Shown: one piece after another, positions 530-4,258 of the stretch
How the letters are laid out: each line of letters begins with the position of its first letter
Position numbering within the stretch: the first letter of the stretch is position 1
Source of the DNA: a virus
Taxonomy: Duplodnaviria; Heunggongvirae; Uroviricota; Caudoviricetes
Length of the DNA: 4,258 bases
IMG/VR virus record: IMGVR_UViG_3300029008_000041
Strand: one strand, 5' to 3'
Made by a program: the position numbers and the translations under genes
Notes under the pieces: model-generated
What the model saw: the letters and a program-made list of their open reading frames with translations, nothing else
Told to the model about the DNA's origin: nothing
Database searches by the model: none

Positions 530-685
530 TTACTCCTCAGGTTCGTAAGCTGTGAAGACAGCGACCTCCGTCTGGCCGGTTCGGATTCGTACCTCGCAGA
601 GGTCTTTCCTCGTTACCAGTGCCGTCACTATGACGGTTAAACAGATGACGATCAGGGCGATTAACATCGCCTTTTGCTGCTTCAT
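530..685 (-). CDS. hokD: Hok/Gef family type I toxin (51 aa)
   Basis: Translation MKQQKAMLIALIVICLTVIVTALVTRKDLCEVRIRTGQTEVAVFTAYEPEE shows the Hok/Gef hallmarks: an N-terminal transmembrane helix and the conserved TRKDLCEV..R.G..EVAVF.AYE core. From memory it matches E. coli HokD (RelF) and differs at about ten positions from Gef/HokC. SD AAGGAG sits 9 nt upstream of the ATG at 685-683. The symbol is from recall, not a search. Confidence 0.88.
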   Translation of the reverse strand: MKQQKAMLIALIVICLTVIVTALVTRKDLCEVRIRTGQTEVAVFTAYEPEE

Positions 686-2295: not shown

Positions 2296-2514
2296 TCAGT
2301 TTTCCTTATACGGATTAATTTTATTGTGCAGTGTGTTGAATGACGCCCATACCACGTCGTTATACAATTCAATAACTGGCTCAATTATTTTTCCGATTAT
2401 CCAGGCTAGGATTAACGGGGATATCGGTATCATCAACACGATAAACAGAATGAGAAACAGAAATTCTGTTGTTCTACTCTTTCGCGGATATTTTTTTCTA
2501 AATAATGTGACCAT
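2296..2514 (-). CDS. hypothetical small membrane protein (72 aa, one predicted TM segment)
   Basis: ATG at 2514-2512. Translation MVTLFRKKYPRKSRTTEFLFLILFIVLMIPISPLILAWIIGKII... has a basic N-terminus followed by a hydrophobic helix. AT-rich gene, coupled to the downstream gene. Confidence 0.6.
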   Translation of the reverse strand: MVTLFRKKYPRKSRTTEFLFLILFIVLMIPISPLILAWIIGKIIEPVIELYNDVVWASFNTLHNKINPYKEN

Positions 2515-2520
2515 TCATTA

Positions 2521-2536
2521 CCGCCCTTTCGGGCGG
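2521..2536 (-). promoter_or_regulatory. GC-rich hairpin with GAAA tetraloop between an SD and the start codon of the 72-aa gene
   Basis: Minus-strand CCGCCC-GAAA-GGGCGG (perfect 6-bp GC stem). The intergenic RNA reads UAA-UGUC-AGGAGG-[hairpin]-UAAUGA-AUG. No U-tract follows, so it is not a typical intrinsic terminator. Confidence 0.5.
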
Positions 2537-2546
2537 CCTCCTGACA

Positions 2547-2759
2547 TTAATCGTTGTGATAACTCATAGCTTCATTTGCAGCATCAACTGGATCAACCTC
2601 CCTCCAGCAATAATTTGGGTCGGCTCCTTCAGGCGTCCACGGTTCTAATTCATTTTTTGCCGCATTCTCATCGCCAGTAATTTTAAAAATCTGCTCAGAG
2701 AATTTTCTTGCCCACTCGTTATATTTTTCCGCATTAATGGCTTTCTGTGTATTTAACAT
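2547..2759 (-). CDS. hypothetical small prophage protein (70 aa)
   Basis: ATG at 2759-2757 with a strong SD GGAGG 7 nt upstream. Translation MLNTQKAINAEKYNEWARKFSEQIFKITGDENAAKNELEPWTPEGADPNYCWREVDPVDAANEAMSYHND. Confidence 0.7.
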   Translation of the reverse strand: MLNTQKAINAEKYNEWARKFSEQIFKITGDENAAKNELEPWTPEGADPNYCWREVDPVDAANEAMSYHND

Positions 2760-2809
2760 AAATATACCTCCAGTTAAGGATTAGATTTTATTTACAGCGC
2801 TAAATTTAT

Positions 2810-3128
2810 TTATTCAGTTCTGGATTTTGTCGCCCTGCGTATCCGCGCTTTCGCGTTACGCTCAATCTGAATTAACTTTTCTATATTTTTCCGCCTTTCC
2901 TGTTCCTCCTGGCGCAATAGCCTTACATCATCTGCCAGTCTGGTTTCTCTTTTCGCCACAGAGAGCATCCAGTCAAACGGCTCCACAACTGCACCGCAGA
3001 TTTTACAGCGGACCTGACGCTCTTTTTCGTCAACCCGAACAGAGGCGTGATGGCAATATGGTCTTTCCGATGGCTCATAAAGAAAATTAACCTGATTACG
3101 AGGGTTGGATTTGCCCCTATATTTCCAT
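2810..3128 (-). pseudogene. Zn-finger-like small regulatory protein gene, apparently disrupted by a 1-nt frameshift just after its start codon
   Basis: A strong SD AAGGAGAGGAGC precedes ATG 3128-3126, but that frame stops after three codons (ATG GAA ATA TAG). The +1 frame is open for 121 codons (3175 down to 2813) with no ATG before codon 70 and encodes ...YCHHASVRVDEKERQVRCKICGAVVEPFDWMLSVAKRETRLADDVRLLRQEEQERRKNIEKLIQIERNAKARIRRATKSRTE. Removing one A from the AAA run after the ATG joins start and ORF into about 105 codons. Confidence 0.4.
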
Positions 3129-3185
3129 GCTCCTCTCCTTTGATGCGAATGCCAGCGGTAATTGAAGCCTGATAGCTAATTTCAC

Positions 3186-3611
3186 TCACAGTACCGCCTC
3201 CTGAATATTACCCTGATAGAAAGCCAGTACACGCTGCATAGCTTCACTCTTCCGGCACTCGCGACAGATTATGTTTAGGCGCCTGTCGTAGCGGCGTATT
3301 TCGCCGTCTGGTAACGACCAGATAAGGTCCGGATCAACCACAGATGTTTTTTTCTTCAGCTTTGCCCTTGAGAGTTTTTTGCGGGCGTTTTGCCAGTCCT
3401 TACGAGCCTGTTCAGACGGGAATAACCCGTAACCAGAGTTGTATACATCGCCACTGGCAACCAGCTCTCTGGCGAGAACGCTCATCAGATATCTTGTCGC
3501 ACCTGTTTTCGCTTCCAGTTGTCGTAACGTCTCACGCCCACTCTGGCGTACGAGTTCAACAACCTGCCCTTTAATTTTTTCCCGCTCTTCTTGTGTAAAA
3601 ACTTTTGCCAC
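3186..3611 (-). CDS. hypothetical prophage protein (141 aa), possible DNA-binding or replication-associated
   Basis: GTG start at 3611-3609 with a strong SD AGGAGG 4 nt upstream. Translation MAKVFTQEEREKIKGQVVELVRQSGRETLRQLEAKTGATRYLMSVLARELVASG...IICRECRKSEAMQRVLAFYQGNIQEAVL. It sits immediately downstream of the replication-like gene. Family not recognised. Confidence 0.75.
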   Translation of the reverse strand: MAKVFTQEEREKIKGQVVELVRQSGRETLRQLEAKTGATRYLMSVLARELVASGDVYNSGYGLFPSEQARKDWQNARKKLSRAKLKKKTSVVDPDLIWSLPDGEIRRYDRRLNIICRECRKSEAMQRVLAFYQGNIQEAVL

Positions 3612-3651
3612 AAGCCCTCCTGAAAATTACCTCATGACCTGAAATCAACAC

Positions 3652-4258
3652 TTATCCCCTGAAACCAGGCGGAATTTCTGTATCAGGTTCAGAAATATGA
3701 TTCACACAACGCTGGTTGTTCGTGCCACTTACCGGGAGCAACCAGGGGTTCTCAAAATTCCGGTCCGGTCCAAAAAACGTCGTCGCTCGCTGAACAAATT
3801 CCGTTCCCGTTTTCCCGGTAGCCGCCAGGTATCTTGCGTAACGCCTCACGCCATCCAGCATGGCCTCTGGTGGCACCCCCTCGCGTAATCTGGCCTTCCA
3901 GGCACTGAAAGCGGATTTCTTCGGGTTTGCCCCGGCACGCAACGGGTACTCCCGCCAGACCTGTTCGAACACATCCGGATAATCCACTCTTCCCACAGAC
4001 TGCCCGTTTTTTTCCGGGACTACCCGATCGGCTTCCCGCTGAATGGCGGAATCGGCTTCAGGCTGCTGCAGTGGGTGCGATTGCTCCGGCCTTGCGGTCA
4101 TCACCTGCTGCACAGCGCCCGAATCGGCTTTCAGCGCATACGCTGAATCGGCTTCCGGTGTCGTGCCTGCTGGCTGACCAGGATTGACGGTCTGAACATC
4201 CCCTGCCTGGTTCGTGGCGTTTTTTACGCCATGGACCATAGTGTTTTGATCTTCTTGA
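3652..4258 (-). CDS. phage replication-initiator-like protein, C-terminal part (5' end lies beyond the window)
   Basis: The ORF track gives 3652..4239, but there is no SD before ATG 4239 and the frame stays open to the window edge, so the gene probably starts upstream. It has a Pro/Gln/Ala-rich linker with repeated PEADSA-type motifs, encoded by direct DNA repeats, then a C-terminal domain ...DYPDVFEQVWREYPLRAGANPKKSAFSAWKARLREG...FFGPDRNFENPW. The O-like assignment is an inference from architecture, not a verified family match. Confidence 0.7.
   Translation of the reverse strand, partial: QEDQNTMVHGVKNATNQAGDVQTVNPGQPAGTTPEADSAYALKADSGAVQQVMTARPEQSHPLQQPEADSAIQREADRVVPEKNGQSVGRVDYPDVFEQVWREYPLRAGANPKKSAFSAWKARLREGVPPEAMLDGVRRYARYLAATGKTGTEFVQRATTFFGPDRNFENPWLLPVSGTNNQRCVNHISEPDTEIPPGFRG
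4026..4156. repeat. four direct repeats of GAATCGGCTT(T)C (iteron-like) inside the replication-like gene
   Basis: Copies at about 4026-4036 (GATCGGCTTCC), 4048-4059, 4121-4133 and 4145-4156, arranged as two pairs roughly 22-24 bp apart and about 70 bp between pairs. A degenerate fifth copy (GCTGAATGG) lies near 4037-4046. Confidence 0.5.

Follow-up and report, generated by a model that had tools for sequence, protein, structure and literature searches.

The window considered here is a DNA stretch of 4,258 nucleotides (nt) from the IMG/VR virus record IMGVR_UViG_3300029008_000041 (Caudoviricetes). It ends within a phage replication initiator gene whose linker-coding part contains short repeated sequences, hereafter boxes, which the original prediction regarded as lambda-like iterons of a prophage replication origin at 4026-4156. 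These boxes are conserved as nucleic acid and frame a hairpin whose stems covary. Together with two arrays of hexamers, an A-rich tract and an inverted repeat, they probably belong to an intragenic origin in which the iterons are to be sought outside the boxes.

The replication initiator gene

Over its last 659 bases, the window shows 100% identity to a prophage of Escherichia coli strain 3385 (NZ_CP029420.1) located beside tRNA-Ser/mtfA, and the corresponding 16.6-kb prophage stretch is referred to as L001. Window coordinates equal 12259 minus the L001 coordinate, a conversion that is valid for the initiator gene (window 3600-4258), the only region with an established match. As had been supposed, the gene is truncated by the window end: the full coding sequence (WP_042198652.1) comprises 1071 nt and 356 amino acids (aa), the window holds codons 156-356, and the N-terminal 155 codons lie beyond position 4258 together with both of the GTCACG arrays described below. 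The Prokaryotic Genome Annotation Pipeline (PGAP) names the product 'phage replisome organizer'. Over its entire length it corresponds to PHROG 3729 ('replication initiation protein'; E 2.8e-253), with weaker matches to two replisome-organizer families, PHROG 4880 (E 9e-6) and PHROG 5968 (E 1e-4), and the gene order in NZ_CP029420.1 is cI-like repressor, cro, ydaT-family gene, initiator and DUF977 gene. The PHROG 3729 match, the PGAP name and the position after cI-cro-ydaT bear out the earlier view that the truncated gene encodes the initiator; the gene belongs to a lambdoid prophage of E. coli, and its product is a phage replication initiator. Near-identical genes (97-99% identity) occur in isolated or induced coliphages, including Tritos, Evi and several vB_Eco phages. 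The initiator gene was matched in 2482 of 5426 complete E. coli genomes and the initiator module in 2482-3180 of them, about half, as well as in isolated and Shiga toxin (Stx)-converting phages.

The Phage_rep_O N-terminal domain, which the original prediction had proposed to look for, gave no Pfam match in the full protein; the only Pfam hit was a sub-threshold HTH_Crp_2 (13.5 bits), and zero families exceeded the cut-off in the Pfam and NCBIfam scans. The replisome-organizer N-terminal model TIGR01714 matches residues 5-125 weakly, at 15.4 bits against a cut-off of 49.8. At the other end of the protein, the last 24 residues (333-356) align with residues 156-179 at the C-terminus of DnaT (E 0.0016; 18.1 bits against a cut-off of 201), a likeness that is a common C-terminal tail and not membership in the DnaT family. 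Several phage records are annotated 'primosomal protein I' because of this resemblance. The tail (...ISEPDTEIPPGFRG, window 3652-3723) is almost invariant among homologues. In the AlphaFold (AF2) model of a close full-length relative (P0006), a confident N-domain (residues 1-93) and a helix (110-126) are followed by a disordered segment at 128-232 (predicted local distance difference test, pLDDT, about 30) and a helical C-domain (233-320). A Foldseek search of this model against PDB returned only weak winged-helix look-alikes, with the best E not below 0.4, and the initiator was therefore given no fold assignment. Directly after the initiator lies the DUF977 gene (window 3186-3611; L001 8648-9070); a helicase-loader gene of DnaC-like or lambda-P-like type is absent from this place in the prophage. 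Most relatives carry a loader gene at that place, either DnaC-like/IstB_IS21-type or named 'replication protein P'.

Conserved boxes and a covarying hairpin

Four in-frame copies of ATCGGCTT, a motif of 8-10 bases, lie at window 4027-4154, three of them in the form GAATCGGCTT. The latter occurs exactly three times in the window (4049, 4121 and 4145, + strand), with 0.29 copies expected from dinucleotide shuffles and three reached in 1 of 200 shuffles. The fourth copy, ATCGGCTTC (4027-4035), is without the leading GA. Where 'four or five' copies had been counted, four are real and the window contains no fifth. Read on the gene strand, all four share the core AAGCCGAT, which occurs nowhere else on either strand of the 16.6-kb L001. 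They start 24, 72 and 24 bp apart, all in one reading frame, and encode the peptides PEADSA, LKADSG, PEADSA and READRV. The whole set is a duplication of two 36-nt units, 96 bp apart, with one box pair per unit. The placement in the linker-coding part of the gene was correctly foreseen, the boxes occupying codons 190-233 of 356 in the inter-domain part whose product is disordered in the relative's model.

Base composition and spacing do not agree with the box interval being the core of the origin. The interval 4026-4156 is the part of the gene with the highest G+C content (60-67%), and the low-G+C tract (35-38%), which would be expected next to the core, lies 80-230 bp away and abuts a GTCACG array instead. 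The spacing of 24 bp within box pairs corresponds to about 2.3 helical turns and is non-integral; the GTCACG copies are 10-11 bp apart.

The boxes themselves are kept as DNA, synonymous sites included, and are not a repeat at the peptide level only, a distinction that the original prediction had proposed to draw from homologues. Distant relatives of the linker and C-terminal module (C-module), namely the metagenomic loci L137, L138, L140 and L141 and the Salmonella locus L139, share 55-67% protein identity with the window in this module and use the same codon at 44-53% of the identical degenerate residues. Every one of them has the pair RAAGCCGAT-N16-RAAGCCGAT, and the remaining linker is unalignable. 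Across eight sequences, the codons of identical degenerate residues were invariant in 5 of 5 cases within the box pair as against 6 of 47 columns in the C-domain (hypergeometric about 2e-4). The first residue encoded by the box alternates between Glu and Lys with the DNA core unchanged, and Shigella phage 75/02 Stx has kept one box in another frame, where it is read as GKPIG. Polymorphism in the E. coli lineage, sampled as 83 haplotypes from 286 loci, affects 3 of 32 box sites compared with 70 of 193 sites elsewhere in the linker (Fisher p 0.002). The boxes and their 24-bp spacing are under nucleotide-level selection. When IMG/VR was scanned for AAGCCGAT-N16-AAGCCGAT, the element appeared in no other setting: about 80 of 120 matches were this gene and the rest arose by chance, mostly in unrelated Lys/Ala- or acid-rich coding repeats. 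A TCGGCT partner complementary to the box was also sought near the gene, and none is conserved.

Each box pair is part of a hairpin of 40 nt, where the two AGCCGA boxes oppose each other as an internal loop between an outer and an inner stem (Table 1). On the gene strand, element 1 reads CCGGA-AGCCGA-TTCAGCG-TATG-CGCTGAA-AGCCGA-TTCGG, with a 7-bp inner and a 5-bp outer stem (RNA minimum free energy, MFE, -14.7 kcal/mol, z -2.3). Element 2 reads CCTGA-AGCCGA-TTCCGC-CATTCA-GCGGGA-AGCCGA-TCGGG; its 6-bp inner stem includes one U.G pair, and it folds at -14.1 kcal/mol in the sense and -11.0 kcal/mol in the antisense direction. The linker DNA between the two elements holds many segregating sites among the 83 haplotypes. 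The 16-base spacer between paired boxes is self-complementary in every lineage, with differing sequences: T-TCAGCG-TATG-CGCTGA-A and T-TCCGC-CATTCA-GCGGG-A for pairs 1 and 2 of the window, T-CTGACC-ACGG-GGTCAG-A in L141, T-CCGAC-CTTGTC-GTCGG-A in L138, T-CCGAC-ATTGCA-GTCGG-A in L140 and T-CCCGCT-GAGC-AGCGGG-A in L139.

Over 17 distinct elements, 89.9% of the cells of the inner 7-bp helix are paired, compared with 37-52% when the partner is slid, and five of the seven pairs have changed on both sides. The covariation score of the inner stem is 0.542, a value reached by 0 of 500 shuffles (0.234 +/- 0.036). RNAalifold adds the 5-bp outer stem, CCGGA/TTCGG (CTGAA/TTCAG in L139), which is 100% paired against 0-60% in controls and has three of five covarying pairs. 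Both stems covary, and where a wobble pair has become fixed between lineages it is a G.U on the sense strand. The covarying hairpin in the spacer points to a single-stranded structure and not to a row of duplex sites. The covariance model matches the element solely in genes with this linker module, and an Rfam 15 scan of the gene on both strands at permissive thresholds reached at best 11-15 bits, against gathering scores of 38-50.

Phased arrays, A-rich tract and inverted repeat

L001 contains 13 GTCACG hexamers, nine of them within the initiator gene (binomial 1e-8). Two phased arrays of this hexamer, A and B, are situated 30-330 bp beyond window position 4258 (Table 1), and successive copies occupy different reading frames. 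Homologues of the N-domain were sampled at 51 loci from Gamma-, Beta- and Alphaproteobacteria and from Pseudomonas and Aeromonas phages, and phased arrays were found at the two equivalent positions in 40-50 of them. The core of the array is GTCACG in about 30 loci, GTAACGC in about six and CGAACGC in about ten. It changes in concert, arrays A and B sharing one core within each genome. Such concerted, frame-independent change is as expected of initiator binding sites, and the comparison suggests that the N-domain binds them. Array A is coded in a low-confidence loop of the N-domain, where extra repeat units have been inserted in E. coli 83972 (7 aa) and in P0054 (14 aa).

BLAST comparisons locate a mosaic breakpoint at gene nt about 458-476, inside the A-rich tract. 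In E. coli 83972 and in Pseudomonas phages (70% identity), the N-module and its two GTCACG arrays precede other C-termini, and these versions have kept the arrays and are devoid of AAGCCGAT boxes. The C-module with the boxes, in turn, is joined to a second N-domain (starting MRDYAKVSPRFWLG) in O157:H7 prophages and in Shigella phage 75/02 Stx. Genes with this second N-domain are without GTCACG and possess their own AAGGGGCTT arrays, again at two positions and with 11-bp spacing, the second of which directly precedes the A-rich tract. The core AAGCCGAT is identical behind both N-domains (L001 and L137-L140 versus L004, L005 and L141). The main argument against the proposal that the boxes are iterons bound by the N-domain of the initiator is thus that they travel with the linker and C-terminal module and not with the DNA-binding domain, each type of which has phased arrays of its own. 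The boxes were also considered as diverged iterons of the second N-domain (GAAGCCGATTC against GAAGCCCCTTC, 9/11); this was rejected, as lineages with the first N-domain conserve them equally.

Phage 75/02 Stx (locus L004) deviates in two further respects. Its array B is inverted, as AAGCCCCTT, and two pieces of linker DNA of about 60 nt lie upstream of its initiator gene (L004 1707-1768 and 1797-1860). Each piece has one fused box (CAGCAGCCTGAAGCCGATTGGGTTAACCC) and together they make up most of a hypothetical open reading frame (ORF) of 72 aa; consequently, boxes stand on both sides of the iteron region in this phage.

Immediately after array B, L001 7960-8039 has the lowest G+C content of the gene (35-38%) and an AT skew of +0.5 to +0.6. 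The last 20 bases of the window belong to this tract, which extends about 29 bases past the window end and there meets array B with its five GTCACG copies. An internal translation start at the MVHG methionine codon (ATG, window 4239) was considered and rejected, the codon being CTG in other lineages. The inverted repeat IR1 comes next in the direction of the gene. It was found in 19 of 19 sequence variants with compensatory changes, for example TGGCGT/ACGCCA against TGGCGA/TCGCCA and GGTCC/GGACC against GGTTC/GAACC, and the Salmonella locus L139 has kept it with a different stem that is translated in another frame. IR1 is probably the hairpin of the right arm of the origin. In most cases among 40 homologues with many C-modules, array B is followed at a distance of 20-160 nt by the strongest hairpin of the gene, and the order of iterons, A/T-rich tract and hairpin appears to be general for this initiator family. 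On the + strand, IR1 has a T5 loop and is followed by TAGTGTTTTG, and a simple scan marks the repeat as terminator-like on that strand, antisense to the initiator; a promoter scan for an antisense transcript ending at IR1 found no promoter-like site in the relevant stretch.

GATC sites, the target of Dam, are present at 4248-4251, at 4026-4029 and at L001 7997-8010, with one or two in the A-rich tract of most lineages. One box of many box pairs holds a GATC as well (AAGCCGATC). An involvement of Dam methylation or SeqA at the origin is possible.

Table 1. Features of the initiator gene and its putative origin, in window coordinates unless a locus is named.
Feature	Position	Strand	Remarks
Phage replication initiator, 3' two thirds (codons 156-356 and stop)	3652..4258	-	coding sequence matches WP_042198652.1; PHROG 3729
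Box-hairpin-box element 2	4023..4062	-	boxes 4051-4058 and 4027-4034; covariance model R1 62.8 bits; Dam site 4026-4029
Variable linker DNA between the elements	4063..4118	-	encodes GAVQQVMTARPEQSHPLQQ; lost or kept in copy-number variants
Box-hairpin-box element 1	4119..4158	-	boxes 4147-4154 and 4123-4130; covariance model R1 62.7 bits, E 2e-15
Inverted repeat IR1	4208..4238		12-13 bp arms, T5/A5 loop; immediately follows the A-rich tract
A-rich (gene strand) low-G+C tract, last 20 bases; candidate unwinding element	4239..4258		GATC at 4248-4251
GTCACG array A	gene nt 129, 139, 149 (GTCACA), 160; L001 7665-7701		outside the window; 10-11 bp spacing
GTCACG array B, five copies	gene nt 389-430; L001 7925-7971		outside the window; 10-11 bp spacing
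AAGGGGCTT arrays	L005 2167-2184 and 2423-2451; L004 2080-2097 and 2333-2360		second N-domain type

In a different part of the window, an ORF of a Hok-family type I toxin (MKQQKAMLIALIVICLTVIVTALVTRKDLCEVRIRTGQTEVAVFTAYEPEE; window 530-685, - strand) is annotated hokD in strain 3385, and a G+C hairpin, AACCCGCCGAAGCGGGTT, is found downstream of it at 446-472. The window and L001 are not collinear around this ORF, with an offset of about 97 bases.

Probable origin layout, rival explanations and known systems

The idea of an intragenic origin very probably stands, with its location inside the linker-coding part of the gene as in lambda O (PMC3349717) and SPP1 gene 38 (PMC6316719). Judging from the sequence comparisons, we hold it to be rather probable that its iterons lie outside the boxes and that the boxes are part of a structured element in the right arm of the origin. 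In gene order, this layout would begin with the two GTCACG arrays outside the window as initiator-specific iterons, continue with the A-rich low-G+C tract, presumably the unwinding element, which reaches into the window, and with the IR1 hairpin, and end with the two 40-nt box-hairpin-box elements in the lineage of the window (Table 1).

The element may act in single-stranded form, on the sense strand. The initiator and/or transcription (as an R-loop) through the origin would open the adjacent tract and free the sense strand, which would fold into the box hairpins and would also be the lagging-strand template for a fork moving in the direction of the gene. The folded hairpins might then help to load the host helicase or primosome, similar to plasmid single-strand initiation signals and PriA assembly sites. 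Such a loading or priming signal is the function that we tentatively prefer, by analogy, and the model is in keeping with the 40-nt hairpins in the oriV of RSF1010, the DnaT-like tail of the initiator, the lack of a loader gene after it and the 6/7-base likeness of the box to the phiX174 assembly-site motif. A bolder version, which we regard as rather doubtful, is that the element and IR1 constitute an undescribed portable cis-acting 'right arm' of the origin, written into the coding sequence of a disordered linker, common to two N-domains and serving as a primosome- or helicase-loading site on the sense strand. If this were true, an initiator with a DnaT-like tail would recruit the host helicase without a phage-encoded loader.

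A number of observations weigh against this explanation of the origin and its right arm. The same C-domain (96% identical) is found behind a third, HTH_36-type N-domain (P0038) with a different linker and no boxes. Copy number in E. coli ranges from 4 down to 1, the alleles with three, two and one box having arisen by in-frame deletion between boxes (peptides PEADSGAVQQ..., PEADSAYALKADSAIQREADR, PEADSAIQREADR and PEADRVVPE); single-box alleles (L425, L504) are without the hairpin and keep the outer stem, which closes over the box, and two lineages (L502, L503) have IR1 and zero boxes. The common E. coli alleles retain at least one box pair at 24 bp. Whatever its role, the element is either an accessory or one whose dose can be adjusted. 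On the + strand of the window, opposite to the gene, IR1 folds more stably (RNA MFE -22.1 kcal/mol, z -5.1). The outer stem of the element contains G.U pairs and is predicted with RNA but not with DNA parameters, which favours RNA over single-stranded DNA. The likeness between GAAGCCG in the box and the phiX174 assembly-site motif GAAGCGG, a consensus of primosome assembly sites, extends to 6/7 bases. Finally, many of the 17 aligned elements are close relatives, leaving only about four independent lineages, a number that scans of IMG/VR and metagenomes did not raise, as they yielded for the most part E. coli prophages that are almost identical. Changes that look compensatory can also arise through template switching at quasi-palindromes, with no selection for structure.

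The elements could instead act as RNA in the initiator mRNA, displaying the AGCCGA internal loop to a protein or ribonuclease, and may in this way control the translation, stability or processing of the early-right transcript or the transcribing polymerase. We consider this possible. Besides the folding parameters just mentioned, it draws on the pairing of the outer stem, where 85 of 85 cells are standard pairs only if G.U is counted (14 are G.U), and on the lineage-fixed wobbles on the transcribed-sense strand. Moreover, single-box alleles and the upstream copies of phage 75/02 Stx still form a small stem over the box, with G.U in two of the five pairs of the latter. On the other hand, no Rfam family matches, no binding partner or complementary sequence was found nearby, and the wobble asymmetry among population variants is weak (3-4 sense versus 2 antisense). 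The element is also tightly linked to the A-rich tract and IR1, a linkage that an expression signal does not need, and IR1 prefers the other strand.

Explanations based on duplex DNA or on the peptide fare worse. Conservation beyond coding needs, the fixed spacing and the GATC that is often present in one box of each pair would suit duplex sites for another phage or host protein that aids or regulates initiation, with the palindrome being incidental or promoting cruciform extrusion. This is improbable: it gives no reason for stems that change sequence and yet stay complementary, and no gene co-occurs at every locus, YdaT being absent from 75/02 Stx and a DnaC-like gene from the prophage studied here. 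The reading of the original prediction, in which the boxes are duplex iterons for the N-domain of the initiator itself and 4026-4156 is the core of the origin, has become very improbable. It accounts for a lambda-like placement of direct repeats in an initiator gene, within the stretch that encodes the linker (PMC3349717), for conservation at the DNA level and for the two further boxes of 75/02 Stx beyond the N-terminal part of the gene. It has to contend with identical boxes behind two N-domains that have separate phased arrays, with their position in the G+C-richest segment away from the A/T-rich tract, with a spacing off the helical phase, with a spacer that is a covarying hairpin and with a copy number varying from 1 to 4. 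The least credible option, to which we give hardly any weight, is a slippage-prone (E/K)ADS peptide repeat in a low-complexity disordered linker that has no function as nucleic acid. Every copy is in frame, the linker is predicted to be disordered, the alleles with 1-4 copies arise through in-frame deletion between copies, and AAGCCGAT-N16-AAGCCGAT also occurs by chance in unrelated acidic or Lys/Ala coding repeats. Such a repeat would, however, leave unexplained that synonymous sites of the boxes are invariant where 87% of equally conserved C-domain codons have changed, that the DNA core is fixed across the E/K interchange and the change of frame in 75/02 Stx, and that the peptide between the boxes varies while the DNA stays self-complementary.

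Among known systems, the origin of phage lambda lies inside gene O and consists of four 18-bp iterons and a 38-bp A/T-rich tract (PMC3349717). The putative origin described here is similar in its location in the part of the initiator gene that links the origin-binding N-domain with the C-terminal recruitment domain, in the succession of repeats and A/T-rich tract, and in the mosaicism of the gene, with the N-domain and its repeats being co-inherited and the breakpoint falling into the A/T-rich tract. A conserved inverted repeat on the right-hand side of the A/T-rich tract is a known feature of lambdoid origins as well. In contrast to lambda O, the protein has no Pfam Phage_rep_O match, and the presumed iterons are not 18-bp dyads but hexamers that recur once per helical turn and form two arrays separated by about 260 bp. 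We know of no counterpart of the boxes in lambda. In phage SPP1, gp38 binds direct repeats within gene 38 (oriL) that adjoin an A/T-rich unwinding element (PMC6316719). The intragenic repeats beside an A/T-rich tract and the PGAP name replisome organizer are shared with SPP1 gp38, binding being predicted here; the similarity to TIGR01714 remains below threshold, and the host and partner proteins differ.

Plasmid RSF1010 possesses the 40-nt hairpins ssiA and ssiB in its oriV, which are primed by RepB' (PMC8567376). With these single-strand initiation (ssi) signals and the site in the F-G intergenic region of phiX174, our elements have in common hairpins of about 40 nt beside iterons and an A/T-rich tract, with conserved unpaired bases. 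In phiX174, GAAGCGG stands beside a hairpin and GAAGCGCGG follows 46 nt further on. Unlike ssiA and ssiB, which are on opposite strands, both elements are on one strand; they also differ from RSF1010 and PriA sites in that no phage primase gene is nearby, the element is within a coding region and its G.U stems suit RNA better. The lambdoid nut sites (boxA and boxB) and HK022 put offer another resemblance: in early-operon transcripts they form small hairpins which are conserved, as are their single-stranded bases, and the G+C stem and A-rich pentaloop of IR1 recall boxB. Differences are the lack of a boxA-like sequence, the position inside a replication gene rather than just downstream of early promoters and, with respect to nut, the absence of an N-like gene at the locus and of an Rfam match; nothing beyond a resemblance is implied.

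Phage origins embedded in an initiator gene are of a kind already known. What appears to be new is the architecture of two hexamer arrays in this family, the right arm common to two types of N-domain and the box-hairpin-box element; no description of this origin, motif or element was found in the searchable literature. The comparative data amount to a testable map, which runs from two phased arrays of hexamers through an A-rich tract and a hairpin to one or two box-hairpin-box elements, and they show how the DNA of an origin can be built from modules even where it doubles as the coding sequence of a protein linker. They also call for caution in annotation: what looks like a conserved 'peptide repeat' in the disordered linker of a replication protein can be a nucleic-acid signal. 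If the elements are loading or priming signals, they would link initiation in these lambdoid phages to the PriA/DnaT pathway of the host; if they act as RNA, they would represent a new regulatory motif in the early operon of the phage.

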